Shown here in pieces: positions 1-50,825 of a stretch of DNA of 64,000 nt. Source of the stretch: an uncultured Muribaculaceae bacterium (GTDB lineage: Bacteria > Bacillota_I > Bacilli_A > RF39 > UBA660); NCBI GenBank assembly GCA_964481005.1, contig CAYZRY010000002.1, positions 3,488 through 67,487 of the forward strand. The letters run 5' to 3'. The position numbers and the translations under genes are program-made. Numbering within the stretch: the first letter of the stretch is position 1; each line of letters opens with the position of its first letter. Under the pieces are notes generated by a model. It saw only the letters and a program-made list of their open reading frames with translations, did no database searches and was not told where the DNA came from.

Positions 1-671
1 AAACTATCGGTTCTCATACCTTCGATAACTAATCTTCCGCTAGAATACCAAAGTAAGTAGAATGCAAGTAAGCTGCCAGTTTTTAAATACTTATACTTAC
101 GCATAATATACATAATGATAAAACCAATTAAATTCCAGATGCTTTCATAAAGAAAGGTTGGCTGATGATACAAACCATCTATTTTCATACCTTCGATTAT
201 AAAATTGGGTAAACCTTTTTTGCTTAGAGCTTCTAAAGTTGTAGTAGCCCCATAAGCTTCCTGGTTAAAGAAGTTCCCCCATCGACCAATTGCTTGACCG
301 AGGATCAAACCTAAACTTAGATAATCTAATTGTTTCAAAAATTCTAAACGGTGTTTCTTACTATAATATAGGACATATAAAACTCCAAAGAGAATTCCTC
401 CATGAATAGCTAAGCCACCATTCCATATTTCAAATATTTCAAGTAGATTATTTTTGTAATAGGCAATATTGAAAAGAACAAAGTAAAGCCTTGCTCCGAT
501 TATACCAATAATTAGAGTATTCATAATCATATCGACAGTTTCATCTTCGTTTAAGCCAATTCTTTTTACTTCTCTAGTAATAACCGTTATGGCTGCAAAG
601 ACGCCTAAAAAGACCATGATTGAATACCAGTATATTTGGATTACTCCAAAATCAAAAGCAACTCTACTCAC
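1..671 (-). CDS. lgt: prolipoprotein diacylglyceryl transferase Lgt (N-terminal ~223 aa; gene continues past window start)
   Basis: Minus-strand translation contains Lgt signature GRWGNFFNQEAYG and YHQPTFLYESIWNLIGF; N-terminus VAFDFGVIQIYWYSIM fits the Lgt consensus. Only possible start is GTG at 669-671, preceded by AAGAGGTGA. Absent from ORF track because open at window edge. Confidence 0.85.
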   Translation of the reverse strand, partial: MSRVAFDFGVIQIYWYSIMVFLGVFAAITVITREVKRIGLNEDETVDMIMNTLIIGIIGARLYFVLFNIAYYKNNLLEIFEIWNGGLAIHGGILFGVLYVLYYSKKHRLEFLKQLDYLSLGLILGQAIGRWGNFFNQEAYGATTTLEALSKKGLPNFIIEGMKIDGLYHQPTFLYESIWNLIGFIIMYIMRKYKYLKTGSLLAFYLLWYSSGRLVIEGMRTDS

Positions 672-1086
672 TCTTTTTCACCTCTTTTATGAAAGGTTTT
701 ATTATTAAATCATCTATCAATAAGTTAAAGATAGACATTAATATTGATATAAAGAATAGAACTAGTAAATTATCAAACTGAACTCTAGGACCCATTAAAT
801 AGTCTACTAATTTTAAAATGATAACATTATTAAAGAAGTAGAATAGTCCCATTGTTAAACCAGTAATAGGTAGAGTCAGTCTAACTAGTATCGGTTTTAT
901 TGTCTTATTTAAAACATAAATAATAACAACTGAGATAAACGAATATAAAAAGAAGTGTTCTTCGTCTATCGTAAATGTTTTAAACCAATATGACATGATT
1001 AAAAATACAATAGTATACGATAGTAAGTAGAGTACCTTTTCAAGAATATATGTTAATCTCTTTTTAATTTTTAAATCTTTGTTCAT
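664..1086 (-). CDS. small polytopic membrane protein (about 4 TM; YvlD/DUF360-like guess)
   Basis: ORF 664..1140 trimmed to internal ATG (MNKDLKIKK...) with AGGAG 6 nt upstream, which removes overlap with uvrA stop. Very hydrophobic. Stop overlaps lgt GTG start (GTGAGTAG). Confidence 0.5.
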   Translation of the reverse strand: MNKDLKIKKRLTYILEKVLYLLSYTIVFLIMSYWFKTFTIDEEHFFLYSFISVVIIYVLNKTIKPILVRLTLPITGLTMGLFYFFNNVIILKLVDYLMGPRVQFDNLLVLFFISILMSIFNLLIDDLIIKPFIKEVKKSE

Positions 1087-1094
1087 TTTTGCTC

Positions 1095-3902
1095 CTATAA
1101 GACTTTCTTCAAGAATTGACCGGTATACGATTTTGAACATTTAATTATTTCTTCAGGTGTACCACTGCAGATTATCTCTCCGCCTTTGTCTCCACCTTCA
1201 GGACCTATATCAATAATGTGATCTGCTGTCTTAATCATATCTAAGTTATGTTCAATGACCACTACTGTATCCTTATTATCTACTATTTTATTTATTATTG
1301 CAAGCAGGCTTTTAATATCGTGAGTGTGCAAACCAGTCGTTGGTTCATCAAGAATGAATAAGGTTTTACCAGTAGCTACTTTTTGCAATTCTTTGACTAG
1401 TTTAACACGGCTAGCTTCTCCACCAGATAAGGTAGGTGCACTTTGTCCAAGTTTGATATAACCAAGTCCTATTTCATTTAAGACTTTAAGTTTCTTTTTG
1501 ATTTTAGGAACATTTTCGAAAAACTCGTAAGCCTCGCTAACACGCATATCTAGCACATCAGCAATGTTTTTGTCTTTATATTTAATTCTGAGTGTTTCAC
1601 TGTTGTATCTAGTTCCATGACAAACTTCACAAGGAACGTAGACATCGGGTAAAAAGTGCATTTCAATCTTTTTAACACCGTCTCCGCGACAAGCTTCACA
1701 GCGACCACCCTTTACATTAAATGAGAAACGATCTTTTCCAAAGCCGTACATTTTAGCTTCTTTAGTATTGGTAAATAGGGTTCTAATTTCATCAAAGACA
1801 CCAGTGTATGTTGCTGGATTACTCCTTGGTGTTCTACCAATTGGTGACTGATCAATTTCGACAACTTTATCTATATGTTCAAGTCCCTTAATAGCTTTAT
1901 GCTTACCAACTGTTACTTTCGATTTATAGACCTTGTGCTGCGCAGCTTTAGCAAGAATGTCAATAATTAGACTTGATTTTCCCGAACCAGAAACTCCAGT
2001 TACACAAGTAAATTTACCAAGTGGAATGTCGACATCAATATTTTTTAAGTTGTTTTCACTAGCGCCTTGAATAGTAATTTTCTTACCTGTTCCCTCTCTT
2101 CGTACACTGGGAACATCTATCTTTTCTTTACCACTTAAATATCTTCCAGTTAAACTTTTTTCATTGGCCATGACTTCTTTTGGTGTGCCAGCGGCAACTA
2201 CTTTTCCACCCATGTCACCAGCAAGTGGACCTATATCAACCAAATAATCACTAGCTAGCATCGTATCACTATCATGTTCAACGACAATTAAAGTGTTACC
2301 AAGGTCTCTCATTTCAATCAAAGATTTAATTAACTTATCATTATCTCGCTGATGAAGACCAATACTTGGTTCATCTAGTACATAAAGTACTCCCGTAAGG
2401 CGTGATCCAATCTGCGTTGCTAATCTGATTCTTTGTGCTTCTCCACCAGATAAACTTCCAGCCATTCTAGCTAGTGTTAAATAATCGAGTCCAACGTTTA
2501 ATAGAAACTGTAGACGATTATTAATCTCGGCTATTAACACCCGAGAAATCTCTGTTTTTTCTGCAGATAGTTTTAAGCTCTTTAAAAAGTTATACAATTC
2601 TCCAATACTGAGACTAGTCACTTCATAAATATTTTTATTATTAATTTTAACTGAGAGTACTTCTCTTGAAAGACGAGCACCATTACAACTAGGACAAGTC
2701 TGTTCAATCATGTATCCTTCGATCCATTCACGTACCCAAGCACTAGTAGTTGAAAGATAACGTCGCTCTAAATTGTTAACAATTCCCTCGTACGGTTCTT
2801 TCTTGTTGTATACGTTTCCACCCTTAGAAACATAATTAAAGTGAATATTCTCATCACTACCATAAAAGATAATATCTTTTTCTTTTTGACTTAGTTTTTT
2901 AAATGGTTTATCAGTATCTATACCAAAATGTTTACAAACACATTCAAGCATTTGATTGTAGATATTTTCACTATCATCACCAAGAGTTCTAATAGCATAT
3001 TTATCAATCGATAACTCTTCGTCTGGTACTAGCAGATCAGGAGATACTCGTCTTTTAATTCCTAATCCATTACATTCTGGGCAGGCTCCATATGGCGAAT
3101 TAAAGCTAAACATACGTGGTTCAAGTTCAGGTAGTGAGAACGAACAGTGCGGACAAGCGAACTTCTCCGACATAATTATTTCTCCTTCGCCCTTTTTATC
3201 AATTAATACTTTCCCTCTAGCAAGTTTTGCTCCAGTTTCAAGTGCTTCAAAAAGTCTACTTCTAATACCTTCTTTTATAACTAGACGGTCGATAACTACA
3301 TCTATTTTATGTTTAATATTTTTTTCTAAACTAATTTCTTCGCTTAGATCTCTATCTTCTCCATCAACTCTGACCCTTACAAAACCATCACTTTTAAGTT
3401 TTTGTAAGAGATCTTTGTGCTCTCCTTTTTCACCATCGACAATCGGAGCCATGATAACTACTTTTGTACCTTCATCAAAAGACATAACTTTATTAGTCAT
3501 CTCTTCGATCGATTGACTACTTATTTCAACATGATGATCAGGACAGTAAACTGTTCCAATTCTAGCATATAGCAATCTCAAATAATCATATATTTCTGTG
3601 ACTGTTCCAACTGTTGAACGTGGATTGTTACTAGTTGTTTTTTGATCGATACTGATAGCGGGTGATAATCCTTCGATGGAATCGACATCAGGTTTTTCCG
3701 TCCCACCCAAAAACTGTCTAGCATAAGCGCTAAGACTTTCTACATATCTTCGTTGTCCTTCGGCATATATCGTATCAAAAGCTAAACTACTTTTCCCAGA
3801 ACCAGATACACCAGTCATGACAATCAGTGAATTTTTAGGAAGCTCGATATCAATATCTTTAAGATTATTCTCTCTAGCTCCCTTAATAATTATTTTATCC
3901 AT
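1095..3902 (-). CDS. uvrA: excinuclease ABC subunit A
   Basis: 935 aa with two ABC ATPase modules (GVSGSGKSSLAFDT.., GVSGSGKSSL..), zinc-finger Cys pairs, LSGGEAQR signatures. Confidence 0.96.
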   Translation of the reverse strand: MDKIIIKGARENNLKDIDIELPKNSLIVMTGVSGSGKSSLAFDTIYAEGQRRYVESLSAYARQFLGGTEKPDVDSIEGLSPAISIDQKTTSNNPRSTVGTVTEIYDYLRLLYARIGTVYCPDHHVEISSQSIEEMTNKVMSFDEGTKVVIMAPIVDGEKGEHKDLLQKLKSDGFVRVRVDGEDRDLSEEISLEKNIKHKIDVVIDRLVIKEGIRSRLFEALETGAKLARGKVLIDKKGEGEIIMSEKFACPHCSFSLPELEPRMFSFNSPYGACPECNGLGIKRRVSPDLLVPDEELSIDKYAIRTLGDDSENIYNQMLECVCKHFGIDTDKPFKKLSQKEKDIIFYGSDENIHFNYVSKGGNVYNKKEPYEGIVNNLERRYLSTTSAWVREWIEGYMIEQTCPSCNGARLSREVLSVKINNKNIYEVTSLSIGELYNFLKSLKLSAEKTEISRVLIAEINNRLQFLLNVGLDYLTLARMAGSLSGGEAQRIRLATQIGSRLTGVLYVLDEPSIGLHQRDNDKLIKSLIEMRDLGNTLIVVEHDSDTMLASDYLVDIGPLAGDMGGKVVAAGTPKEVMANEKSLTGRYLSGKEKIDVPSVRREGTGKKITIQGASENNLKNIDVDIPLGKFTCVTGVSGSGKSSLIIDILAKAAQHKVYKSKVTVGKHKAIKGLEHIDKVVEIDQSPIGRTPRSNPATYTGVFDEIRTLFTNTKEAKMYGFGKDRFSFNVKGGRCEACRGDGVKKIEMHFLPDVYVPCEVCHGTRYNSETLRIKYKDKNIADVLDMRVSEAYEFFENVPKIKKKLKVLNEIGLGYIKLGQSAPTLSGGEASRVKLVKELQKVATGKTLFILDEPTTGLHTHDIKSLLAIINKIVDNKDTVVVIEHNLDMIKTADHIIDIGPEGGDKGGEIICSGTPEEIIKCSKSYTGQFLKKVL

Positions 3903-4389
3903 ATTGCCTCATTTTAATTTTTTCTTTAATTGTTTGATCCAAATATAATGAATCTCCTAAGAACAATTCAAGTTCTTCAGGAAGCAAATAATACTGTTCA
4001 ACAAATCTTCTTTTTCTAAAGAAAGCTGTATCTTTCATATATTCGATTAGTTCTTCGTGACTCATTTTAGATTTTAGGATTATTTCTCTAGCTGCGTACA
4101 TATCATAGTATCCATAGTATTCATCTTCGTATGTAACATAATCACTAGTATTTGATTCAATTCTGCAGATATCGATATCATCTTTAGTAACAAGACCAGT
4201 ATCTGGCAGAAAGTATCTTAACGTATCTTCAGGATTAGCACAAAAATGATAGCCATTACCCCTATTGCCGAAAGATATAACACCTTCGACACTGTATGTC
4301 TTATTTAGTACAAATTGCTTACCATATCTATTTATTAGTCCCTTATCGAAACATTTAAATCCTCTTATCATACGCACCTCAAACGCCAC
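3895..4389 (-). CDS. hypothetical protein, 164 aa, inserted between uvrB and uvrA
   Basis: Long ORF. Start 2 nt after stop of upstream radical-SAM gene; stop overlaps uvrA ATG by 8 nt (translational coupling). No motif I recognise. Confidence 0.6.
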   Translation of the reverse strand: MAFEVRMIRGFKCFDKGLINRYGKQFVLNKTYSVEGVISFGNRGNGYHFCANPEDTLRYFLPDTGLVTKDDIDICRIESNTSDYVTYEDEYYGYYDMYAAREIILKSKMSHEELIEYMKDTAFFRKRRFVEQYYLLPEELELFLGDSLYLDQTIKEKIKMRQYG

Positions 4390-4391
4390 TA

Positions 4392-5186
4392 TTATAATAC
4401 AAAACGATCTTTAAAGCGACATTTTTTACATAAATCTAAATATGCTTTATTATTTTTAAATGATTGATTAGTTTTGATAAATTCTTCAGATTCTAAGATT
4501 TCAGCAAGTGACTTGTCAAAAACGTTACCAAAACTAGCATCACCATTACCATCTAAACAGCAAGGAACAACTGTCCCATCAGCTAAAATACCAATTTGAT
4601 TGATTGTCCCTAAACAGTATGAATCAGTTTCTTCTTCATCTTCTAAAGTTGGCCATCTAAATTCTTCATCTAAACTTAAATAAATGTTCTTTGCCAATTT
4701 ACAATTTTCTGGCATCTCATCAAAATGATATCTATTTTTAAGAAAATTCATTACCTCTTCGTCATAAACACCATTATTACTAATCCAAATTCGGTAATTA
4801 ATATACATATTATCACTTAGTCTATCGCAAGTTTCGGCAAGAGCATTTAAGTCTTTAATACACTCACTATGAAGAGAAACATTTATCTGATGAACTATTT
4901 CGTTTAATATATTTTCTTTTTTAGTTAGCAGTGAAGAATTGGTCGTAATTACTACTTTGAGATTATTTTTTTGACAAATATCTAAAATATCATTTAATTG
5001 ACTATGTAAAAGTGGTTCACCTTTGACGTGGAGGTAAATATAATCACTGTAATTTTTAACTTCTTTAGCAAGCTTTTTAAAATTATCGATAGACATTTCA
5101 CCACGATCATTCCAAGGTTTACAAAAGCAGCAGTTCAAATTACATTTACTTGTTATTTCGACATATATCTTTTTAAATCTAGCCAT
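4392..5186 (-). CDS. radical SAM enzyme with C-terminal Cys-rich (SPASM/twitch-like) region
   Basis: N-terminal CNLNCCFC = CX3CX2C radical SAM cluster motif at residues ~15-22, GEPLL motif, C-terminal PCC..C..C cluster. ATG at 5186 (MARFKK) chosen over GTG at 5195; ATG overlaps uvrB stop by 8 nt. Confidence 0.7.
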
Positions 5187-7137
5187 TTTTTTCACTCTTC
5201 ATCTCAAAGATGATATCTCTTAGTTCCATCGCTCTTTCAAAGTCTAGTTCATCAGCTGCTTTCATCATTGCCTGTTCAAGTTCTTCGATAGTAACAGTAG
5301 CATAATTATCTTCGCTCTTTTTCTTCTTGCTAACTTTTGTCTCATCGACATTAGAGATCAAGTCTCTGACTTCTTTGATGATTGTCTTAGGTACAATGCC
5401 ATTTTCTTCATTATATTTTTCTTGAATGTTTCGTCTTCGCGCTGTCTCTTCGATAGCATTTTTCATCGAATCTGTTATCTTATCAGCATACATTATTGTT
5501 TTACCTTCGGCATTACGAGCACATCGTCCAATTGTCTGTATTAAACTGCGGGTACTACGAAGGAAACCTTCTTTGTCAGCATCGAGAATTGCAATTAGGC
5601 TAACTTCCGGTATATCTAATCCTTCACGAAGTAAGTTAATTCCAACTAAGCAATCGTACTTTCCAAGGCGAAGATCTCGAATGATACGCAATCTCTCTAA
5701 CGTTTTAACTTCAGCATGTATATAGGCAACTGAAATGTCGATATTTTTTAAGTAATCTGTTAACTCCTCGGCCATTCTAATCGTTAAGGTAGTAATTAAA
5801 GTTCTTTCTCCTCTAGCGATGCGTTCTTTTATCTCACCTATTAAATCATCTATTTGTCCATGACTTGGTCTAATTTCAATTAGTGGATCAAGTAGTCCAG
5901 TCGGTCTGATAATTTGTTCAACGACCCTTTTATCAACCTTTTCAAGTTCATAATCACCAGGCGTTGCTGAAACATATATTGCCTGATTAATTTTCTTTTC
6001 AAACTCATCGAAGGTTAAAGGTCTATTATCAAGAGCACTAGGCAATCTAAAGCCATAGTCAACAAGTGTCTGTTTACGCGATCTATCACCATTGTACATT
6101 GCTCTGACTTGCGGAACAGTTACATGCGATTCATCGATAACCAGTAAAAAGTCATCCGGAAAGAAGTCCATCAATGTCTCTGGTGTTTCACCGGCTTTTC
6201 TACCCGCTAAATGTCTCGAATAGTTTTCTATACCAGAGCAAAAACCAGTTTCACTCATCATCTCTAAATCGTATTTGACTCTTTGCTCAAGTCTTTGATA
6301 TTCAACTAACTTATTAGCTTCGGCTAATTCTTCTAATCTTTCGGCAAGTTCAAGTTTAATATTCTCAATTGCTTTTTCAAGTTTTTCACTACCAACGACA
6401 AAGTGACTAGCTGGAAAAATAGAAACACTTTTTTTATTTAATTTAATTGTTCCCGTCAAGACATCAAACTCACTGATGCGCTCTATTTCATCGCCAAAGA
6501 ATTCAACCCTTATTCCACTAGCTCTTTCATATGTAGGAATTATCTCAAGGACATCTCCCCTTACCCTAAAAGTACCACGTTTAAAATCGTGGTCATTTCT
6601 TTCAAAAAGCATATCGACAAGTTTTAATAAAACTTTATCTCTATCTATTTCATCACCGACATTTAGAGTCAGCATATTTTTTTCGTATTCTTCTTTTTCA
6701 CCAATACCATAAATACAAGAGACACTAGCTACGACTATTACATCGCGTCTTGAAATCAAGCTACTGGTCGCAGCATGTCTAAGTTCGTCTATTTCATCAT
6801 TAATCGAAGAATCTTTTTCAATATAGGTATCAGTCGATGGAACATAAGCTTCCGGTTGATAATAATCGTAGTACGAAACAAAGTATTCTACTCGGTTATC
6901 GGGAAATAATTCTTTTAATTCTGAATATAATTGACCCGCTAAAGTTTTGTTATGAGCCATAATGAGAGTTGGTTTTTGAACTTTTTCGATAACGTTTGCT
7001 ATTGTGAAAGTTTTACCTGTTCCAGTTGCACCCAAAAGGACCTGGCTTTCTTTGCCAAGTTCTATTCCTTCGACTAATTTATCTATTGCCTGTGGCTGAT
7101 CACCAGCCGCTTTAAAACTCGATGCAATCTTAAACAT
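5179..7137 (-). CDS. uvrB: excinuclease ABC subunit B
   Basis: 652 aa; helicase motifs [13 protein letters not shown]-terminal UVR domain ([23 protein letters not shown]). Confidence 0.96.
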
Positions 7138-7195
7138 TTTGCCTCTCTTTCAGGACTTTATTTTACCACTTTTAGTACTTATTAACAAGAAGGCG

Positions 7196-7225
7196 AACAA
7201 AAAGAAAAAGAGCAATGCTCTTTTA
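7196..7225 (-). terminator. rho-independent terminator after M23 peptidase gene
   Basis: Stem AAAGAGC/GCTCTTT (7207-7223) overlapping stop codon, followed on minus strand by TTTTTCTTTTTG. Confidence 0.5.
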
Positions 7226-10023: not shown

Positions 10024-10056
10024 ATAAAAAAAAGTAACTCTATAAAAAAGTTACTC
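10024..10056 (-). terminator. rho-independent terminator after first YitT-family gene
   Basis: Minus-strand hairpin AGTAACT..AGTTACT followed by run of 8 U (forward A-run 10026-10033). Confidence 0.5.
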
Positions 10057-10908
10057 TCCTCCTTGAAGTTGATAGGAATCAGTGACAACAAAGAAGACAT
10101 TTGTGTCAAGTGATTCGATCTTTTCTTTAAACTTAAAATAATCTCTAGTTGGAATAACTGTCATGATTGCTTTGGTCTCTTTATTTTTATAACCACCTTT
10201 TACATCAAAGATTGTTGCTCCGTGATGCATGTCTTTGATTAGGAAATCTGAGATTTTTTCATATTCACTGGTAACAATAATAATATATTTATTTGATGAT
10301 ATACCAAGAACAATCTTTTCCATCATCACCATGCTTGCATATAGAGCTACAGCTGCATACATCATATTCATTGGACCAAAATTAGTAAATGCGAGTAGAA
10401 CAATTATTATGTTGATAATGTTTTCCCATTTGTTAATTGATAAGTGCCATACTTTATTAAATATTTGAGCTAATAGGCTAACTCCTCCAAGACTAAGATG
10501 AGTTCTGCTAACCATTCCTTTGATGAAACCGATTACTACTCCGGCAAGAAGTGCGACAATCAAAGTATCATCACTACCAAGGTCAGATATGCTGCTAAAT
10601 CCTTTGGTTAGTTCAACGAAAATTGGTAGGGCAAAACTAGCATATAATGCAGGCAATATCTTATCAATTCTTAGTGATAGTAAACTGATAAGCAAAATAC
10701 ATGATGAGATAAATAGAATAAGCAGTGAATAATCCATTTGATAGAAGTCATATGAAATTAATGAGAATGATAATACTCCGCCAATAGGTATCTTAAACGG
10801 TACTAAAATTAAATTAAAGACAATAGCTAAAACAAATAGGCATAAAGTCATAATAAAATAATCTTTAAAAATCATCCATAATTTTTCTTTTCTTTTCATT
10901 CTAGACAT
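10051..10908 (-). CDS. YitT-family membrane protein (DUF161 + DUF2179)
   Basis: Multi-TM N-domain and C-terminal ..FFVVTDSYQLQGGE tail typical of YitT family. Start set to ATG 10908 (MSRMKRK) with GGAGGTGA RBS. Confidence 0.7.
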   Translation of the reverse strand: MSRMKRKEKLWMIFKDYFIMTLCLFVLAIVFNLILVPFKIPIGGVLSFSLISYDFYQMDYSLLILFISSCILLISLLSLRIDKILPALYASFALPIFVELTKGFSSISDLGSDDTLIVALLAGVVIGFIKGMVSRTHLSLGGVSLLAQIFNKVWHLSINKWENIINIIIVLLAFTNFGPMNMMYAAVALYASMVMMEKIVLGISSNKYIIIVTSEYEKISDFLIKDMHHGATIFDVKGGYKNKETKAIMTVIPTRDYFKFKEKIESLDTNVFFVVTDSYQLQGGE

Positions 10909-11758
10909 GTTTATCACCTCCGATAACTTGATATGAGTCTGTGACTGAGAAAAAGGCTTTTCGATCAATCTTTTTAATTCCTTCGGTTAGTCTGTGGTAT
11001 CTAGATGTTGGAATAACGCAGAGTAGAACGTTTTGTTTATTGTCGGTGAAGGCTCCAGTTCCCTCAAAGACACTGACGCTTCTCTTGTGTTTGTGAAAAA
11101 TATGATTTTTAACTTCTTCTTCTTTAGAAGTAATGATATACACTGCTTTCGAAGAACTAATTCCAAGCACTACCTTATCAGTCATGACACTGGTAAGCCA
11201 AAGAATAAAGAGTGAATAGATAGCTTCTTTTAAACCAAAGAAATAAGCACTAGATAAAGCAATTAAACCATCACTTAGCAGTATTGCTAGTCCCAGTGAC
11301 ATCTTACCGTAGCGTTCAACTATCTGATTGATAACGTCTGTCCCGCCGGTAGTAAAACCAACCTTAAATACCATTCCATTTCCAAGTCCATCTAAAATAC
11401 CAGCAAATAAAGCTGCTAAAAGAAGTGAGCTTCCACTAAAATCGATAGCTCTGACAAGCGGCTCAGTAAGGGCAACAAACACAGGCATAACTAGACTTCC
11501 GACAAGTGATCCGAACGTTGCTTTTTTACCTAGAAAAATGCTACTGACAAAAAGTAATGATATGTTTATAACAGCTACCGTGACTGCTATGTTGTATCCA
11601 AAAGCCGCATGAATTATTAGTGATAATCCTGTCGCATTACCAGCCGCAAACTCATTTGGTACCATGAATGTGTTATAGGCCACAGCACAGATAAAAAGAC
11701 CTAATAACATATAGGCATATCGATAAATTATTTTCTTGTGCTCCCTTTTTATTCTCAT
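10901..11758 (-). CDS. YitT-family membrane protein, tandem paralog
   Basis: Same architecture as neighbour; C-terminus ..FFSVTDSYQVIGGD. Confidence 0.7.
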   Translation of the reverse strand: MRIKREHKKIIYRYAYMLLGLFICAVAYNTFMVPNEFAAGNATGLSLIIHAAFGYNIAVTVAVINISLLFVSSIFLGKKATFGSLVGSLVMPVFVALTEPLVRAIDFSGSSLLLAALFAGILDGLGNGMVFKVGFTTGGTDVINQIVERYGKMSLGLAILLSDGLIALSSAYFFGLKEAIYSLFILWLTSVMTDKVVLGISSSKAVYIITSKEEEVKNHIFHKHKRSVSVFEGTGAFTDNKQNVLLCVIPTSRYHRLTEGIKKIDRKAFFSVTDSYQVIGGDKHV

Positions 11759-28695: not shown

Positions 28696-29409
28696 TTATA
28701 TCTTTAATTCTTTTTTAATTTTATCGATTGAACGCGGATATTTTTCTTTAGTTTTTTCTTCTTTTTCAAAAATTACAATGCTTCTCAAACTGTTTTCAAA
28801 TGGTAAATCAAAGGTAATAGTTTCAGCAAATTTAAGAGGTAGTTTTTGAGTATGATGAAGACTATTTATTAGTTCTTCATGAACATCACCCTTCATTAAA
28901 ATTAACTTCCCACCAAGCTTAATTGAGCGCGTTGAAATCTCTGCTAAGACAGCAGTGTTAGCTACTGCTCTAGCAGTTACAACATCAAATTTTTCAAGAT
29001 GTTTTTTTGAATAATCTTCCATTCTTCCGTGAACAGTTTCAATATCTTCCAGTTCTAATTTTTCGATAATTTCGTCTAAAAATTTAATACGTTTATTTAA
29101 AGAATCAATCAAGGTAACATGGATATTTGGAAAAAATATTTTAATCACTATACCAGGAAATCCAGCACCAGTTCCAACATCACAAAGACTATCAATATTA
29201 TTTAAATCAACTGCTTTGATTAATGTTAAACTATCATAAAAGTGCTTTAGATAAACTTCTTCTTTTTTGGTGATTGCGGTCAAATTTATTTTGTTATTCC
29301 ATTCAATTAATAACTCAAAATATTTTGTCAACTGACTCAATTTGATATCATTTATCTCGATTGTATTTGAGAGTTTTTTTACTTCTTCGACAAATTGTTT
29401 CTCAGTCAT
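28696..29409 (-). CDS. rsmG: 16S rRNA (guanine527-N7)-methyltransferase
   Basis: GidB family, SAM motif DVGTGAGFPG. Confidence 0.9.
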   Translation of the reverse strand: MTEKQFVEEVKKLSNTIEINDIKLSQLTKYFELLIEWNNKINLTAITKKEEVYLKHFYDSLTLIKAVDLNNIDSLCDVGTGAGFPGIVIKIFFPNIHVTLIDSLNKRIKFLDEIIEKLELEDIETVHGRMEDYSKKHLEKFDVVTARAVANTAVLAEISTRSIKLGGKLILMKGDVHEELINSLHHTQKLPLKFAETITFDLPFENSLRSIVIFEKEEKTKEKYPRSIDKIKKELKI

Positions 29410-31261
29410 GTTTACTCCTTTTTATATAAAGCGAAAGTATGCTAATATCACTTGGATTAACACCACTAATACGCATTGCTTGACCAAGTGAAGTTGGTCT
29501 TACTTCAGTTAGTTTTTGCTTTGCCTCATGAGCAATATTTTTTATTTTATTGTAGTCGATATCCTCGGGAATTAGCTCGTTTTCAAGATCCAGCATTTTA
29601 GCTGCTTCTTTATTTGCTTTGACAATATATCCAGCATATTTAATATTTATTTCGACCTCTTCATAAACTTCATTATCGAAATCTTCGCCTATATATTTTG
29701 TTAAATTTTGTATTTCTATCTCTGGTCTTTTTAATAAATCATAAAGAGTAATTCCATCTAATAAATGAGTCGATGAATATTCATTTAAAAACTCTTCGCT
29801 TTCTTTTCCAGGAACTAATTTTTTACTTTTTAAAATTTCTGTTAAACGGTCGATATCTTTAATTTTATTTTGAAATTTTGTGTATCTTTCTTCACTAAGT
29901 AAACCTATTTCTTTTCCGTAATCAGATAGTCTTAAATCGGCATTATCATTTCTTAAAAGAAGTCTATATTCTGCTCTCGAAGTTAATAGTCTATATGGAT
30001 CAATAACTCCTTTTGTAATTAAATCATCAATCAAAACCCCAATGTAAGCTTCACTTCTTTTTAGTACTAAAGCATCTTTATTATTTAGTTTATTGACAGC
30101 ATTTATTCCTGCCATTAAACCTTGACAAGCAGCTTCTTCATAACCACTTGTTCCATTAATTTGTCCGGCTGTAAATAAATTTTCGATGAGTTTTGTTTCA
30201 AGTGAGGCTTTTAATTGTCTAGCATCGATTGCGTCGTATTCGATAGCGTAAGCATATTTTTTAATAACTGCTTTTTCAAGCCCTGGCAAACTGTGAATCA
30301 TTTTTTCTTGAACATCTCTTGGCATGCTCGTTGAAAATCCTTGAACATAGATATCATCATAATAAATACTCTCTGGTTCTAAGAATATTTGATGTCTATC
30401 TTTATCAAAAAAACGAACAATTTTATCTTCGATTGATGGACAATATCTTGGTCCTATTCCTTCGACATATCCACCATACATACTAGATTTGTTTAAATTT
30501 TTATTAATTATTTCGTGTGTTTCAGGTGTTGTATAAATCAAATAACATGGTTCTTGATTTGCAGGATCGTAATATATTTTTCTATCGTGAGAAAAAGTCA
30601 AAGCTTCAGGATCTCCCTCTTGAATTATTCCTTTGCTATAATCAATTGAACTTTTTTCAAGTCTTGCTGGTGTACCTGTTTTCAATCTTTTGATTGTGAA
30701 ACCTAAATCACGTAGTTTTTCACTCAAAAACTTAGATGGTTCTTTTCCATCTGCGCCTTTACTAGTTTTTTCTGATCCAATTAGAATACTTGATTTTAAA
30801 TATGTACCTGTCGTTAAAATGACTACTTTAGAATATATCTTTTCACCATTTGCTAGAACTATTCCTTTGACAATTGAATCTTCGATTATTAGATCTTCGA
30901 CCATATCTTCTTTTATCTTGAGATTATTCTGATTTTCTAGTACTTCAAGCATATTTTTATGATATGTTACTTTATCTATTTGTGCTCTTAAAGCCCTAAC
31001 TGCTGGTCCCTTTTTAGTGTTTAACATCTTTAATTGCAAAAGACTTTTATCGGTATTTATACCCATTTCTCCGCCCAATGCATCTATTTCACGAACCACA
31101 ATACCTTTAGCTGGTCCACCTATCGATGGATTACAAGGAGTATCTGCTATATTTTTTAAATTACTACTTATTAGGAGAGTACTTTTTGAAAGTCTACTTG
31201 TTGCTAGCGAAGCTTCGCAACCAGCATGACCCCCACCTACTACTATTACATCATATTCCAT
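29402..31261 (-). CDS. mnmG: tRNA uridine 5-carboxymethylaminomethyl modification enzyme MnmG
   Basis: FAD-binding N-terminus YDVIVVGGGHAGCEA; 619 aa. Confidence 0.95.
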   Translation of the reverse strand: MEYDVIVVGGGHAGCEASLATSRLSKSTLLISSNLKNIADTPCNPSIGGPAKGIVVREIDALGGEMGINTDKSLLQLKMLNTKKGPAVRALRAQIDKVTYHKNMLEVLENQNNLKIKEDMVEDLIIEDSIVKGIVLANGEKIYSKVVILTTGTYLKSSILIGSEKTSKGADGKEPSKFLSEKLRDLGFTIKRLKTGTPARLEKSSIDYSKGIIQEGDPEALTFSHDRKIYYDPANQEPCYLIYTTPETHEIINKNLNKSSMYGGYVEGIGPRYCPSIEDKIVRFFDKDRHQIFLEPESIYYDDIYVQGFSTSMPRDVQEKMIHSLPGLEKAVIKKYAYAIEYDAIDARQLKASLETKLIENLFTAGQINGTSGYEEAACQGLMAGINAVNKLNNKDALVLKRSEAYIGVLIDDLITKGVIDPYRLLTSRAEYRLLLRNDNADLRLSDYGKEIGLLSEERYTKFQNKIKDIDRLTEILKSKKLVPGKESEEFLNEYSSTHLLDGITLYDLLKRPEIEIQNLTKYIGEDFDNEVYEEVEINIKYAGYIVKANKEAAKMLDLENELIPEDIDYNKIKNIAHEAKQKLTEVRPTSLGQAMRISGVNPSDISILSLYIKRSKHD

Positions 31262-32672: not shown

Positions 32673-33293
32673 TTACTCTTCTTCTTTTTTCTTTAATTTA
32701 ATGACTACGTAACGATTAGGTTCTTCCCCTGCACTCTCAGTATAGACAAATCTATCATTACCTAGAACATTGTGAACAATTCTTCGTTCATAAGAATTCA
32801 TTGGATCAAGCTTAGCTTCAATTTTAGTTTTAGCTACTTCCCTAGCAATTCTTTTTGCCATTCTCTCTAGATTGTTTTCTTGTTTTTGTTTATACTGTGC
32901 AACATCAAGATTATATTTAAAAGTAAATGGCACTTCATTATTTAACATTTGTCTTGTAATTTGGTTCAAAGCAGAGATTGTTCTTCCCTCTTTACCTATT
33001 AAAATAGCATTGTTATCACTGAAAATCGTATAGTTGTAAATTCCATCTCTAACAGTTGTTTCAATTTTTATATCAAGTCCCATTTTAGCTGTAAGATTTG
33101 TCAAAAATTCTTTAATTAATAGTGATACATCTTCTTTTTTATAAATAGTTAATTCTATTTTTTTACTTTTGAATAGTCCAGCTTTCTGCTCTTCTTCTTT
33201 AACGTATACTTCTTCTTCGTTAACGTTTAGTTCATATAGAGCTAGGTTTAGGGCTTCAGATTTAGTTTTTCCTACATATGTGTATGTTTTCAT
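32673..33293 (-). CDS. khpB: RNA-binding protein KhpB/Jag (KH + R3H)
   Basis: 206 aa with Jag-N, KH and C-terminal R3H (..YERRIVHNVL..). Downstream of yidC as in Bacillus spoIIIJ-jag. Confidence 0.8.
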   Translation of the reverse strand: MKTYTYVGKTKSEALNLALYELNVNEEEVYVKEEEQKAGLFKSKKIELTIYKKEDVSLLIKEFLTNLTAKMGLDIKIETTVRDGIYNYTIFSDNNAILIGKEGRTISALNQITRQMLNNEVPFTFKYNLDVAQYKQKQENNLERMAKRIAREVAKTKIEAKLDPMNSYERRIVHNVLGNDRFVYTESAGEEPNRYVVIKLKKKEEE

Positions 33294-34216
33294 GCTTTTT
33301 TCTCCTTCTTTATAATCATATTTTGAATTATTGTGAATAAATTAGAAGTAACCCAGTATATTCCAAGGGCAGATGACATGAAGACAGCCATTACTGTGAT
33401 CATACCAGTCATCATATTACCCATTGATTTACCCTGTTTTGCATCTATTGATGCCATGTTTTTACTAAATGATAGCCATGTTGTGTAACCAACTAAAGCA
33501 AGAATAATTATGTATTGCCAGTTGCCATTCATAAAACCTACAAGTGGAGTTGTTCCAAGTTGAAAGCTTAAAAACTTTTCTTCAAATATTGCTGGAACTC
33601 GGCTTATTGCTTCGAAGAATCCAATGAAAATTGGTAATTGAATAAATGCTAGAAGACAACTTGATAATGGATTGACTTCATATTTTTGATAAAGAGCTGA
33701 CATTTCCTGACTTTTCTTCATCATTGAGTCTTGATCATTCTTATCTTTATACTTATCTTCGATTCTAGCCATTTCAGGTTTAAGCTTATTCATGTTTTCC
33801 GATTGTTTTGCTGTTTTACTAGTTACTGGGAACATCAATAATCTTATTAGAATACTTGTTATTACTAGGGCAAAACCATAACTTTTTACAATTGTTCCTA
33901 TTTTGATAATCATAAATGCAAGTGGTTTGACAAAAAGTGTTGCCCAAAGTCCTTCGTATCCTCCAGATGTTACTTTAAAATCTTTACATGCTGGTAGTTT
34001 TTCTAAATTTACTTGTTTAGGATATTTTTTATATATCTCTATTGTTTCTTTATCTGTTGGCTTACAAAGTATATTTTCTGTTAAACTCTGACCAGTTGTA
34101 GGGTTTTTAACACCTTTGTTAGTTTCTTTATCTTTTAAATTTACAGTACATGCTGTAAGAAAAAAGATCGATATAAGGAGAATAGTCAATATTTTTTTAT
34201 TTTTCATTTTTAACAC
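33290..34216 (-). CDS. yidC: membrane protein insertase YidC (lipoprotein type, SpoIIIJ-like)
   Basis: Lipobox LTAC after signal peptide; 308 aa 60-kDa inner-membrane insertase family. Confidence 0.85.
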   Translation of the reverse strand: MLKMKNKKILTILLISIFFLTACTVNLKDKETNKGVKNPTTGQSLTENILCKPTDKETIEIYKKYPKQVNLEKLPACKDFKVTSGGYEGLWATLFVKPLAFMIIKIGTIVKSYGFALVITSILIRLLMFPVTSKTAKQSENMNKLKPEMARIEDKYKDKNDQDSMMKKSQEMSALYQKYEVNPLSSCLLAFIQLPIFIGFFEAISRVPAIFEEKFLSFQLGTTPLVGFMNGNWQYIIILALVGYTTWLSFSKNMASIDAKQGKSMGNMMTGMITVMAVFMSSALGIYWVTSNLFTIIQNMIIKKEKKA

Positions 34217-34544
34217 CTCTATTTAGCTTATCAACTGCATCCATGAATAGTTTAGCGGTTGTTTCATATGAATCTATATCAAAGCCATTCCTAACTATTA
34301 TAATATAATCGTATTCATTTTGATAGTTATTTTTATTTTGATCGATTATCATTCTTAGTTGTCTTTTTATTTTGTTTCTCTTTACGGCGCTACCTATTTT
34401 TTTACCAATCGATATACCAAAACGATATGTTTTATATTCATTCTTATATATATATATTGAAAAAGAGCTATTAGAATAGTATCTTCCATTTTTAATAGCT
34501 ACGGTAAAATCTTCGTTATCTTTGACTATGTTAATCTTCTTCAT
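34197..34544 (-). CDS. rnpA: ribonuclease P protein component
   Basis: 115 aa basic protein directly downstream of rpmH; RnpA motif region (..ISIGKKIGSAVKRNKIKRQLR..). Confidence 0.85.
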   Translation of the reverse strand: MKKINIVKDNEDFTVAIKNGRYYSNSSFSIYIYKNEYKTYRFGISIGKKIGSAVKRNKIKRQLRMIIDQNKNNYQNEYDYIIIVRNGFDIDSYETTAKLFMDAVDKLNRGVKNEK

Positions 34545-34597
34545 AGGTCACCTTCCAATAACATTATATAATAAAAAACCCACTATTAAAGTGGTTT

Positions 34598-34714
34598 TTA
34601 TACTAATTTTTTTCTTCCCCTAGCTCTTCTTCTTTTTAAAACAGATTTAGAAGTAGCAAAAAAACCGTGTACTTTTGCTTTTTTTCTCTTGTTAGGTTGA
34701 TAAGTTCTTTTCAT
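34598..34714 (-). CDS. rpmH: 50S ribosomal protein L34
   Basis: Not in ORF track (short). Hand translation of minus strand: [38 protein letters not shown]; classic rpmH-rnpA-yidC order. Confidence 0.85.
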
Positions 34715-34779
34715 AATACACCTCCAAACTTAAAATCTACACAATTATATATTACTTATTAGTCATTTGTCAATTATTT

Positions 34780-34925
34780 TTACTTATAAACATATTAACA
34801 ACTATGTTGATAATTATTTTAGACATGTTATTAAAAATTTGTGGAAATTGTTAATAACTTCGTTTATAATAACAAACTAACGATTTTAATTGTGGATATC
34901 TTTGTGGATATCTTGTGAACACTCT
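34780..34925. promoter_or_regulatory. oriC upstream DnaA-box cluster and dnaA promoter region
   Basis: DnaA-box-like 9-mers: TGTTGATAA (34805), TGTGGAAAT (34840), TGTGGATAT (34891 and 34904, 13 bp apart), TGTGAACAC (34915). AT-rich; strand switch of all genes here. Confidence 0.7.
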
Positions 34926-35009
34926 TTTTGAGGGGTTTTCAACTTTATTTTTTTTAACATTTGATATAAACTTAATTTAAGAAATGTTTATAGGTTTGGG
35001 GGAGGAATT

Positions 35010-36362
35010 ATGGATTTAGATAACGTATGGCATCAAACTCTTGAAATAATTAAAAATGAACTTAATCTCCTTGCTTTTCAAACTTGGTTTGAGAACACTA
35101 AAATAGATAGTATTAAAGATAATACTGTCACTATTATAGTCCCTTATTCTATTCACAAACAACATATGGAGACTAATTATAAAGATATTATAGTTAATGC
35201 TCTAAAACTTATTAACAATGAAACTTATGAACTTAAATTTGTATTAGAGACTGAAGTTGAAGAAATCGAAATACTAGATGTTAGTCAACCAGTCAAAGAA
35301 AAGAAAAATGATAGTTTTATAACTAATCTTAATCCAAATTATACTTTTGATACATTTGTCGTAGGTAACAGTAATCGATTTGCACATGCTGCTTCATTAG
35401 CGGTAGCTGAAAATCCTGGTAAAATATACAATCCACTGTTCATTTATGGTAATAGTGGACTAGGTAAAACCCATTTGATGCATGCGATTGGTAATTACAC
35501 TTCGCAGTACAGTGATAAAAAGGTTCTATATATAACTAGTGAACAATTTATCAACGATTATGTTTCAATTAATCGACGTGATGATAAAACAAACAATTTT
35601 GAATACGTTGATCTATTTAAAAGTAAATACCGTGATGTCGACGTTCTGATTATCGATGATATTCAGTATTTAGGCGGAGCGACCGAGACACAGAAAGAAT
35701 TCTTTCAAACGTTTAATACTTTATATGAAAATAAAAAACAAATTATTATATCTTCGGATACTTCGCCAAACGATTTAAAAAGACTTGAAGATCGTTTAAT
35801 AACAAGATTTTCATGGGGATTGACAGTAGATATATATCCTCCTGATTACGAGCTTAGATACGAAATATTAAAGAAAAAGATAGCAGGGGAGTCAATTGGA
35901 ATTAAAATACCAAATGACGTTATCGAGTTTATTGCCTCATCTATCAGTGGAAATATAAGAGCTCTCGAAGGATCAATTAATAGATTATTAGCTTATTCTA
36001 CAATAATGAACCTAGAAATAGACATAAATGTCGCCAAAGAAGCTCTAAAAGACTTTATAAATAAAGGCACTAGTGAAAAGAACGATATAACTAAAATTCA
36101 AAAGGTTGTCGCTAATTACTTTGGAATTGCTGTCGAAGATCTAAAATCTAAGAAAAGAAACAAAGAAATTATTTTACCTAGACAAATAGCTATGTATCTA
36201 GCAAGACAACACACTGATGAGTCTTTCCCTAAAATAGGTAGTGAATTTGGTGGTAAAGACCATTCGACAGTCATTCATTCTTGTGATAAAATAGAACAAG
36301 AGTTAAAAAAGAATAAAGAGATTAAAATGATAGTTGAAAAACTTCAGAAAGAGATAACATAA
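35010..36362 (+). CDS. dnaA: chromosomal replication initiator protein DnaA
   Basis: AAA+ GNSGLGKTHL Walker A, C-terminal DNA-binding domain, 450 aa. Confidence 0.97.
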   Translation: MDLDNVWHQTLEIIKNELNLLAFQTWFENTKIDSIKDNTVTIIVPYSIHKQHMETNYKDIIVNALKLINNETYELKFVLETEVEEIEILDVSQPVKEKKNDSFITNLNPNYTFDTFVVGNSNRFAHAASLAVAENPGKIYNPLFIYGNSGLGKTHLMHAIGNYTSQYSDKKVLYITSEQFINDYVSINRRDDKTNNFEYVDLFKSKYRDVDVLIIDDIQYLGGATETQKEFFQTFNTLYENKKQIIISSDTSPNDLKRLEDRLITRFSWGLTVDIYPPDYELRYEILKKKIAGESIGIKIPNDVIEFIASSISGNIRALEGSINRLLAYSTIMNLEIDINVAKEALKDFINKGTSEKNDITKIQKVVANYFGIAVEDLKSKKRNKEIILPRQIAMYLARQHTDESFPKIGSEFGGKDHSTVIHSCDKIEQELKKNKEIKMIVEKLQKEIT

Positions 36363-36469: not shown

Positions 36470-37594
36470 ATGAAATTAAAAATTAAAAGAGAAGTTCTAT
36501 TAAATGCTCTTAACAAGGTATCTAAAGCCATATCAAGTAAAAATCTTATTCCTGTTCTATCTGGAATTAAATTTAAACTAGATAAGAAAGGTTTAAATCT
36601 ATTAGCATCTGATAACGATATAACAATCGAAGTATTCATTCCTATAAATAAAGAAGATATGACAATTGAAAAAGAGGGAAGTATTATTATATCTGGTAAA
36701 TACATATTAGATATAATAAGAAAACTTAATTCAGAATATATAAATATTGAAGTCGTAGATGAATTAAAGATCGTTGTCTATACTGAAAGTAGTGAATTTA
36801 ATTTAAATGGAATCAATCAAAGTGAATATCCTAATATAAATATTGAACTTGCGGATAATCCAATAGTAATAAACAATAAAATGTTAAAGACTATTGTATA
36901 TCAGACTTCTTTTGTAACATCAAATGATGAAGCAAGACCAATATTAACAGGTATTAATCTATTAATTAATAATAAAGAGATTGAATGTAATGCTACAGAT
37001 TCATATAGATTAGCTAAAAAGGTAGTTAAGTTAAGTAAAAAAGTTGATGAAGCTCAAAATATAGTTATTCCAAGTAAGAATATTAATGAATTTATCAAAA
37101 TACTTGATGATAATGATAGTGAAGTAGAGATCCATGTATTTACAAATAAAATTGTATTTAAATATGACAATATTCTATTTCAATCTAGATTAATTAATGG
37201 AAGTTTCCCAAATACTAATAATTTGTTTCCGACAGAATATCTACTTAAGATTAAATTCAATATAAATGAATTATATAATGTTATTGATAGAGCAAGTATT
37301 TTGACCTCTGATCGTGAAAAGAATGTTGTAACTCTTGAAACTGAAGGAAATCAATTAACTGTTAGATCTCAATCAGCTGAAATAGGGCGAGTTGAAGAAA
37401 AAATGACAATTGAGAAAGATAGTAAAGAAGATATTAAAATATCTTTCAGTGCTAAATACATGATGGAAGCTTTAAAATCATTCGATGAAGAAGAAGTTGA
37501 AATATCATTTGTTGGTGAAGTAAAACCTATAATTATTAAGAAAATTAACAAAGAAGATTTAATTCAATTAGTTTTACCAATAAGAACTTATTAA
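36470..37594 (+). CDS. dnaN: DNA polymerase III beta sliding clamp
   Basis: 374 aa, three-domain beta-clamp, follows dnaA. Confidence 0.95.
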   Translation: MKLKIKREVLLNALNKVSKAISSKNLIPVLSGIKFKLDKKGLNLLASDNDITIEVFIPINKEDMTIEKEGSIIISGKYILDIIRKLNSEYINIEVVDELKIVVYTESSEFNLNGINQSEYPNINIELADNPIVINNKMLKTIVYQTSFVTSNDEARPILTGINLLINNKEIECNATDSYRLAKKVVKLSKKVDEAQNIVIPSKNINEFIKILDDNDSEVEIHVFTNKIVFKYDNILFQSRLINGSFPNTNNLFPTEYLLKIKFNINELYNVIDRASILTSDREKNVVTLETEGNQLTVRSQSAEIGRVEEKMTIEKDSKEDIKISFSAKYMMEALKSFDEEEVEISFVGEVKPIIIKKINKEDLIQLVLPIRTY

Positions 37595-38240: not shown

Positions 38241-41262
<3,022 letters not shown>

Positions 41263-43754: not shown

Positions 43755-43756
43755 AA

Positions 43757-43846
43757 TGTAAATGATGCAATGGATTGTATTAGAACCAGGTCAGGATAGG
43801 AATATAGCAGCCTTAATAGTTCTAATCCATGTGCATCATTTTTTTG
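43757..43846 (+). ncRNA. ffs: signal recognition particle RNA, small (4.5S-type, single hairpin)
   Basis: ACCAGGTCAGGATAGGAATATAGCAGCC matches SRP RNA domain IV (E. coli ACCAGGUCAGGUCCGGAAGGAAGCAGCC), with the GGAA tetraloop and both conserved loop strands intact. Closed by long stem AAATGATGCA-ATGGATT ... AATCCAT-GTGCATCATTT and terminal U7. Only ~100 nt between gyrA and tadA, so small type. Confidence 0.8.
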
Positions 43847-43855
43847 AGGTAATTT

Positions 43856-50255: not shown

Positions 50256-50825
50256 ATGAAATTAATCGTAGGTTTAGGAAATCCAGGAAGAAAATACAAC
50301 AAAACTCGTCATAATATGGGTTTTTTAGCTATTGATAAATATTTAGATTCAGTTGATTCAGTTAAAGCAAAAAATAAATTCAACGGAGAGTATTATCATC
50401 TTGAAATAAACGGCGAACAGGTTATCTTTTTAAAACCGCTTTCATATATGAATTTATCGGGAACAGTTATCAGACAGTTTGTCGAGTATTATAAAATAAA
50501 TTTCGATGACATTTTAATTATTCATGATGATTTAGACACTTATTTTGGTAATATTAAAATTAAAAAAGGTGGATCTAGCGCAGGCCACAACGGTTTAAAA
50601 AACATTGAAGAAAATCTTAAAACTAAAGAATATAAACGTGTCAAACTTGGAATATCTAGTAACGGTGAAGAAGAAAAAAGTGACTATGTTCTAGCCAAGT
50701 TTAATAAAGAAGAACAAAAAGAACTTGAGAATATCTTAGAAATAACTACAGATATTATTAATGATTATCTAACTTTATCTTTCGATAATTTAATGAATAA
50801 GTATAATAAAAAACAGGAAGTATAA
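50256..50825 (+). CDS. pth: peptidyl-tRNA hydrolase
   Basis: ORF trimmed to MKLIVGLGNPG..RHNMGF.. ; 189 aa. Confidence 0.9.
   Translation: MKLIVGLGNPGRKYNKTRHNMGFLAIDKYLDSVDSVKAKNKFNGEYYHLEINGEQVIFLKPLSYMNLSGTVIRQFVEYYKINFDDILIIHDDLDTYFGNIKIKKGGSSAGHNGLKNIEENLKTKEYKRVKLGISSNGEEEKSDYVLAKFNKEEQKELENILEITTDIINDYLTLSFDNLMNKYNKKQEV

Follow-up and report, generated by a model that had tools for sequence, protein, structure and literature searches.

A radical SAM gene and a DUF7666 gene between uvrB and uvrA in an uncultured member of the Bacilli

What are two additional genes doing between uvrB and uvrA, and do they belong together? The question is raised by a stretch of 64 000 nt (hereafter the window) from an uncultured Muribaculaceae bacterium (GTDB lineage Bacteria; Bacillota_I; Bacilli_A; RF39; UBA660), positions 3488 to 67 487 of contig CAYZRY010000002.1 in GenBank assembly GCA_964481005.1. 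On its minus strand four genes run head to tail: uvrB, a radical S-adenosylmethionine (SAM) gene, a small gene of the DUF7666 family and uvrA. A first-pass annotation, made from the sequence alone, had taken the two inserted genes as a pair, possibly a maturase and its protein substrate, co-expressed with nucleotide excision repair. Our analysis separates them. On balance we favor an account in which they are two independent accessory genes, passengers in a variable slot of the uvrB-uvrA transcription unit, and not an enzyme-substrate pair. The arrangement of the genes is genuine and conserved and offers a lead that can be tested, but it is no evidence of a new system, and the two proteins are new, uncharacterized members of known superfamilies.

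Gene order and distribution of the inserted genes

The unit begins with uvrB (5179..7137; 652 aa) and continues with the radical SAM gene (4392..5186; 264 aa), the DUF7666 gene (3895..4371; 158 aa) and uvrA (1095..3902; 935 aa), all on the minus strand. Both uvr genes are open reading frames (ORFs) whose orthologues in locus L001, the nearest relative, are 90% (UvrB) and 89% (UvrA) identical and carry the UvrB and UvrA Pfam domains; L001 has the same four genes in the same order. The four genes are tightly packed, as first described, and the 8-nt overlaps at both outer junctions can be read directly from the sequence. At 5179..5186 (minus strand), ATGGCTAG combines the uvrB stop TAG (5181-5179) with the radical SAM start ATG (5186-5184), and at 3895..3902 (minus strand), ATGGATAA combines the stop TAA of the DUF7666 gene (3897-3895) with the uvrA ATG (3902-3900). 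The latter overlap is identical in L001.

The inner junction is looser than the first-pass annotation had it, and the lengths of both inserted products change slightly. In the program-made ORF list the radical SAM frame runs to GTG 5195 (267 aa); ATG 5186 matches the starts of its homologues and gives 264 aa, in place of the 265 aa first reported. For the DUF7666 gene the listed start is GTG 4389 (164 aa). The most likely start is ATG 4371, which has a GAGGTG Shine-Dalgarno sequence 3 nt upstream and gives a product of 158 aa; in the public collection a 158-aa product (P0121) spans 96% of the 164-aa query, and its homologue P0122 is also 158 aa long. With this start the gap between the radical SAM stop and the following start codon therefore widens from 2 nt to about 20 nt. 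The spacer (4372..4391, minus strand; 20 nt) contains the Shine-Dalgarno-like GAGGTG, and the spacing is equal in L001.

From a scan of one genome per GTDB species for the radical SAM gene we retained the 80 closest loci, which we then searched with the UvrB, UvrA and DUF7666 sequences of the window. uvrB and/or uvrA was found within 8 kb in 26 of the 80 loci. uvrB itself lies that close in 25, which speaks against a strain-specific insertion of the radical SAM gene. It is also by far the commonest neighbor, standing within three genes in 23 loci and directly upstream in 17. The distance from the uvrB stop to the radical SAM ATG is between -14 and +14 nt in 17 of the 25 uvrB-bearing species loci, and likewise in the window, L001 and L006. 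In a metagenome-assembled genome labeled 'Firmicutes bacterium', a 46%-identical homologue lies between uvrB and uvrA without DUF7666; another homologue, 48% identical, adjoins greA, with no uvr genes. Nine linked loci were found to have no uvrA downstream, and six of these read uvrB-radical SAM-PF04020-lgt. At L074 the radical SAM gene is directly 5' of uvrA and no uvrB was found; at L068 uvrB is about 7 kb upstream.

The uvrB-uvrA interval behaves as a variable slot, in that the cargo before or after the radical SAM gene differs from genome to genome (linked loci among L010-L082). This cargo includes a 239-aa protein (cluster c18), a histidine kinase, pilin-like proteins, an ATP-binding cassette (ABC) exporter, small ORFs (c31, c52, c53) and a large gene of opposite orientation. 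The uvr-linked loci have a wider synteny in common (uvrA-PF04020-lgt and M23-uvrB) and fall mainly in one part of a neighbor-joining tree, with unlinked sub-branches interspersed and L027/L033 and L069 as outliers. The other 54 loci have no uvr link; their records are labeled Lysinibacillus, Paenibacillus, Cohnella, Erysipelotrichaceae, Acholeplasmataceae and several Clostridia. Clustering of the three neighbors on each side and a Pfam scan of the 104 immediate neighbors yielded no recurrent partner family among these 54 loci, the most frequent types being HTH_3 in six (Lysinibacillus group), S1 in five and ABC in four.

Radical SAM and DUF7666 genes were found together in only five loci: the window, L001, L019, L146 and L167. 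Of the 80 species genomes with radical SAM homologues 79 lack DUF7666, L019 being the sole carrier, and more than 70 DUF7666 loci have no radical SAM gene of the window type. The pair is thus far from being a fixture between uvrB and uvrA. Because DUF7666 is missing from most radical SAM loci, uvr-linked ones included, it is not a dedicated substrate of the radical SAM enzyme, and this co-occurrence pattern largely refutes the maturase-substrate pair and corrects the idea of the two genes as one system. Instead, there are two independent linkages, one of the radical SAM gene with the 3' end of uvrB and one of DUF7666 with the 5' end of uvrA. The DUF7666 protein of L019 is 37% identical to that of the window and 45-48% identical to copies in other contexts. 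A recent horizontal insertion of the two genes was also rejected: their composition (GC 28-30%, and 19-22% at third codon positions) is in line with that of the host (31.7% overall), and both occur in relatives.

The distribution of DUF7666 was followed in 80 metagenome loci and in individual look-ups. Altogether it stands directly 5' of uvrA in 11 loci, six of which lack a radical SAM gene directly upstream. Among the 80 metagenome loci, uvrA is directly downstream in eight and desulfoferrodoxin in four, and NrtR and/or NAD kinase is directly upstream in 17. In the eight uvrA-linked metagenome loci the upstream neighbor is uvrB without a radical SAM gene (L110), a radical SAM gene (L146, L167), a dxs-like gene (L142), spoVA-like genes (L162, L178) or an oppositely oriented XRE gene (L165, L166). 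The spoVA-like group consists of three ORFs (about 150, 329 and 115 aa) ahead of DUF7666-uvrA, at 6-1788 of L162 and 1623-3393 of L178, which resemble spoVAC/AD/AE by their sequence starts; if this is confirmed, some carriers of DUF7666-uvrA would be spore formers. The look-ups placed DUF7666 after NrtR-NAD kinase in NAD-salvage clusters and before desulfoferrodoxin, with a Xer-type recombinase, an FAD oxidoreductase and a metallophosphoesterase among its other neighbors. In a weakly resolved neighbor-joining tree of the 158-aa protein, the uvrA-linked copies are scattered.

The two proteins and their probable chemistry

The radical SAM protein matches the Pfam families Radical_SAM (PF04055, 40.9 bits, above the gathering threshold) and SPASM (PF13186, 53.9 bits), and its structural model contains a partial TIM-barrel. 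The motifs first pointed out in it are all there: the N-terminal cluster motif C15-X3-C19-X2-C22, the GEPLL element, which as KGEPLL at residues 55-60 is a GGE-type SAM motif, and the C-terminal cysteine region. In an alignment of 25 homologues eight cysteines are invariant (C15, C19, C22, C191, C209, C210, C253 and C256), and two motifs, YLHVKGEPL and F-x-W-P, are invariant and specific to the family. The window protein has 13 cysteines altogether, including a non-conserved C20 within the cluster motif CNLNCCFC. A loop of about 14 residues before FxWP (in the region of residues 140-165) is present in most family members (about 278 aa) and missing from the window protein and from P0002, P0006, P0010, P0046 and P0052.

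The seven-cysteine SPASM motif, CX9-15GX4C...CX2CX5CX3C...C, binds two auxiliary clusters. Our protein has only five conserved C-terminal cysteines (191, 209, 210, 253 and 256) and lacks the CX5CX3C part, on which grounds a two-cluster SPASM domain was rejected. Because there are five conserved cysteines and not seven, the C-terminal domain fits a twitch domain, whose pattern is present as C...C across a beta-hairpin followed by CX2C (C191, C209, C253 and C256); these four cysteines align with the C-terminal domain of BtrN. A twitch domain holds one auxiliary cluster (PMC9012708). Of the initial description as an activase-like enzyme with an auxiliary cluster, the auxiliary-cluster domain therefore stands (PF04055 plus PF13186) and the likeness to activases does not, the nearest enzymes being BtrN and BlsE.

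Among solved structures BtrN is the best relative by sequence (E 5e-19), and a second aligned stretch takes in the C-terminal cysteines. Structural comparison gave figures of 20.2 for BtrN, 17.8 for BlsE, 16.0 for SuiB and 15.9 for anSME, followed by 10.1 for QueE, 9.8 for PflA and 8.4 for spore photoproduct lyase; its SPASM/twitch relatives included SuiB, anSME, SkfB and CteB-type enzymes. BtrN, the 2-deoxy-scyllo-inosamine (DOIA) dehydrogenase of the butirosin pathway (PDB 4m7s/4m7t), belongs to the radical SAM dehydrogenases and has two [4Fe-4S] clusters (PMC10337720). Its solved chains have 269-270 aa, against 264 aa here, and the radical SAM core, the one-cluster twitch domain and the four auxiliary cysteine positions all align. 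The differences are an identity of only 26% and, in our family, the extra invariant C210 and the family's own two motifs. A BtrN orthologue (DOIA dehydrogenase) was rejected, since the neighbors in all 80+ loci are uvrB, uvrA and housekeeping genes, with no aminoglycoside genes. BlsE, SpeY, DesII and AbmM, which are twitch/SPASM enzymes acting on small molecules, are all encoded in natural-product clusters, whereas the present family is located among housekeeping genes without a conserved partner.

Other identities fared no better. NCBIfam returned 58 weak matches, none near its cut-off; the best was a tungsten-cofactor maturase model (77.6 bits against a cut-off of 380), and the NrdG2 model scored 28.6 bits against 131. 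No equivalog cut-off was reached for PflA, NrdG or QueE, the well-known families that the first-pass annotation had named as possible homes for the protein. Spore photoproduct lyase was set aside on its low structural-comparison figure (8.4 against 20.2 for BtrN), and PHROGs and PADLOC matched only a generic radical SAM or viperin core. No N-terminal peptide-recognition (RRE) domain was found, the cluster motif already beginning at residue 15; this, together with the lack of a recurrent neighbor in the 80 loci, led us to reject a SPASM-type maturase of peptides synthesized ribosomally and modified post-translationally (RiPPs).

Homologues form 5408 clusters at 90% identity, and a full HMMER scan of 1.84 billion representatives delimits a family of 747 clusters at 50% identity (E<=1e-30). 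Single-domain proteins of 229-333 aa make up all of the 150 best representatives, with no domain fusions among them. Judged by its sequence, the window protein is a stand-alone member of an uncharacterized Bacillota family of BtrN-like radical SAM enzymes, to which BtrN and BlsE, two twitch enzymes with small-molecule substrates, stand nearest. Repair link or not, these 747 clusters define a discrete, widespread and uncharacterized family of small twitch-domain radical SAM proteins, and its cultured members (Lysinibacillus, Paenibacillus) are open to direct study.

BtrN-type chemistry is the best-supported mechanism, with motifs and fold as the observed part and the individual steps taken over from homology. 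The N-terminal [4Fe-4S] cluster (C15/C19/C22) would cleave SAM to a 5'-deoxyadenosyl radical, which would take a hydrogen atom from a small substrate that probably resembles a sugar, a cyclitol or a nucleoside. The electron would then pass to the one auxiliary [4Fe-4S] cluster, and the outcome, as with BtrN, BlsE and SpeY, would be a net oxidation or a related rearrangement by radical chemistry; the invariant C210 may act as a proton or hydrogen-atom relay.

The second inserted protein had been described as matching nothing recognizable. It matches Pfam DUF7666 (PF24703) at 37.5 bits against a cut-off of 27, as do all 27 of its aligned homologues. A first search gave 72 relatives, and a profile of the N-terminal domain gave at least 1275 clusters. 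The best 120 relatives are 100-182 aa long; none is named and none shows a domain fusion. No relative was found in viral contigs and PHROG matches were weak (E 2e-4), so a phage origin was rejected.

The model of the DUF7666 protein (pLDDT 89.9) has a beta-rich domain at about residues 1-104, followed by a C-terminal helical domain. Its structural-comparison figures were 6.4 for PARP15, 6.2 for AcrF11, 5.9 for diphtheria toxin, 5.8 for Tpt1 and 5.6 for Arr, with RES toxins, DarT and CC0527 as further matches. Arr is also the best Foldseek match, at a value that is not significant (E 0.063). The nearest known group is the ADP-ribosyltransferase (ART) superfamily (SCOP d.166.1: BC2332-like, PARP, diphtheria toxin, Arr, Tpt1/KptA, RES, DarT), from which DUF7666 differs in having no sequence similarity, no recognizable catalytic motif and an extra C-terminal helical domain. 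Neither PDB sequences nor Pfam profiles gave a sequence link to ART families. Because Foldseek is not significant and the profiles offer no ART link, we hold an ART-like fold of the N-terminal domain with moderate confidence only. The invariant residues are G4, K6, H42, C44 and D49, and the nearly invariant ones E48, R52, D83, Y85, Y88 and Y89.

If the fold prediction is right, the protein probably binds or uses NAD+, and an NAD-using, ART-like enzyme is our best hypothesis for DUF7666. We count in favor of the fold that DUF7666 clusters of the NAD context also carry an ADP-ribosylglycohydrolase gene. Such loci, by their gene content, look like an NAD/ADP-ribose cluster. DUF7666 directly follows an NrtR and/or NAD-kinase-like gene in L091-L094, L111, L118, L121, L133, L136, L137, L140, L143, L144, L150, L152, L159 and L179, and NrtR only in L139, L160, L161 and L170. 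The clusters also hold genes for phosphoribosyl pyrophosphate synthetase, a nicotinamide mononucleotide adenylyltransferase-like protein and CinA/PncC, and a separate radical SAM gene of 295 aa (PF04055 plus Fer4_12) that belongs to a different family from that of the window (31% identity, core only). DUF7666, with its at least 1275 clusters, thereby gains a first structural and contextual hypothesis, NAD-linked and ART-like.

A possible role in excision repair

We read the uvrB-radical SAM junction as inherited operon structure rather than as proof of a repair role, because the linked genomes are not independent and the radical SAM family is unlinked to repair genes elsewhere. On the favored account a single lineage of uncultured gut Bacilli would have fixed the radical SAM gene immediately 3' of uvrB, where it would be co-transcribed with uvrB and probably translationally coupled to it. 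DUF7666 would be a separate, scattered small gene that has repeatedly landed directly 5' of uvrA or 3' of NrtR/NAD kinase.

Several observations weigh against the two genes being mere passengers. The uvrB-radical SAM junction stays tight across relatives whose radical SAM proteins are only 40-46% identical, and the gene has kept its place beside uvrB after uvrA left (nine loci) and beside uvrA after uvrB left (L074); persistence and tightness of this kind would also fit functional coupling. The adjacency of DUF7666 and uvrA behind five different upstream neighbors, together with the scatter of these copies in the tree, hints at selection for position. The chemistry is exposed as well: the small-molecule substrate is deduced solely from the nearest characterized relatives, at 26% identity, and no H-Y-E or R-S-E catalytic triad could be recognized or mapped in DUF7666.

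A possible, if rather doubtful, alternative is that in anaerobic gut Bacilli the radical SAM enzyme serves nucleotide excision repair or DNA-damage tolerance as an accessory factor. It may, as one possibility, reverse or process UvrABC-type lesions (5',8-cyclopurines and other sugar-radical lesions) by radical chemistry, with C210 as hydrogen-atom donor, a part that a cysteine plays in spore photoproduct lyase; another possibility is that it modifies UvrB itself. This reading draws on the prominence of uvrB among the neighbors and the close junction, on an adjacency to uvrB or uvrA that outlasts both the loss of the other uvr gene and the insertion of cargo, and on the nearest structural relatives, BtrN and BlsE, which act on sugars and nucleoside sugars. 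SplB and TIGR03916, the 'putative DNA modification/repair radical SAM protein' family, are precedents for radical SAM chemistry on damaged DNA, the thought behind the lesion-directed enzyme that the first-pass annotation had considered; neither is among the 25 best NCBIfam matches of our protein.

Against this, the uvr-linked loci cannot be counted as independent observations, given their common wider synteny and their position mainly in one part of the tree, and family members in Lysinibacillus, Paenibacillus, Erysipelotrichaceae, Acholeplasmataceae and Clostridia are near no repair gene. No DNA-binding domain was found in the protein, which in the window is acidic (pI 5.2, net charge -9; mean pI of homologues 8.4 when uvr-linked and 7.7 when unlinked). 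Control of the unit by the SOS repressor LexA was rejected, with respect to this one operator type, since the 200 nt upstream of uvrB contain no Cheo box (GAAC-N4-GTTC, at most one mismatch), either in the window or in 27 related loci; a look for LexA/DinR boxes at the uvrB promoter had been suggested at the outset. The papers searched yielded nothing on a radical SAM gene in the uvrB-uvrA interval, on radical SAM genes of RF39, or on DUF7666, and so lend the repair role no support.

We consider it unlikely that DUF7666 is an NAD+-dependent ART-fold enzyme working with UvrA, by marking or processing damaged DNA or by modifying UvrA, with the radical SAM enzyme unrelated to it. The case for such a role consists of the 11 loci in which DUF7666 directly precedes uvrA behind five kinds of upstream neighbor (radical SAM, uvrB, dxs-like, spoVA-like and XRE), the scattering of these copies in the tree, the stop/start overlaps in L001 and the window (in L110, L162 and L165 the called ORFs overlap as well, with uncertain starts) and the NAD-metabolism context elsewhere. 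It is weakened by the missing catalytic triad, by the poor resolution of the tree, and by the fact that most DUF7666 genes lie away from uvrA in diverse contexts.

Less probable again is a combination of both, in which uncultured anaerobic gut Bacilli would have two accessory enzymes of nucleotide excision repair: a UvrB-coupled, BtrN-like radical SAM enzyme acting on sugar or base lesions of DNA, and a UvrA-coupled, NAD+-using ART-fold protein that would mark or process DNA ends or lesions or modify UvrA, the whole being a new class of repair accessory factors. Were either protein to work with UvrAB, it would be only the second or third radical SAM example in DNA repair, and DUF7666 could for the first time link a factor of the ADP-ribosyltransferase type with bacterial excision repair, in poorly known gut bacteria.

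That the radical SAM protein is a maturase modifying the DUF7666 protein, both being one system, is highly improbable: the two genes are adjacent and co-directional in their five shared loci, and many SPASM/twitch enzymes, such as the relatives named above, modify peptides or proteins, but each gene is widespread without the other, the enzyme has no N-terminal peptide-recognition domain, and the sole radical SAM gene that accompanies DUF7666 in the NAD clusters is of that other family.

Boundaries of the unit and the wider window

A terminator-like hairpin with a T-run lies 3' of the upstream M23 peptidase gene (7206..7224, minus strand; a consensus match only) and suggests that the unit starts at uvrB. 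A promoter-like site 5' of uvrB (7160..7188, minus strand) has the elements TTGTTA and TAAAAT, 17 nt apart, with a TG; it too is only a consensus match, and the region as a whole has no more promoter-like sites than shuffling leads one to expect. Directly after uvrA, and outside the finding proper, comes the PF04020 membrane protein gene (664..1086, minus strand), a member of the conserved uvrA-PF04020-lgt synteny.

The chromosomal replication origin probably falls within the window, some 28 kb from the uvrB unit, because gene orientation switches at 34217-35009. To the left, on the minus strand, are yidC (33290-34216) and mnmG (29402-31261); to the right, on the plus strand, are dnaA (35010-36362), dnaN (36470-37594) and gyrB (39307-41262). 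The transcription-repair coupling factor gene mfd is at 50825-54067 (plus strand), with UvrB_inter, CarD_TRCF_RID and TRCF domains, and the organism is therefore equipped with UvrA's usual partner in transcription-coupled repair. A bacterial small signal recognition particle RNA (Rfam RF00169, 67.6 bits) at 43754-43852 (plus strand) is the sole Rfam family in the window at the gathering threshold. Two tandem YitT-family membrane protein genes (PF02588 plus DUF2179; 10051-11758, minus strand) lie 5' of ftsE-ftsX-M23 peptidase-uvrB, an order that is kept in L001.

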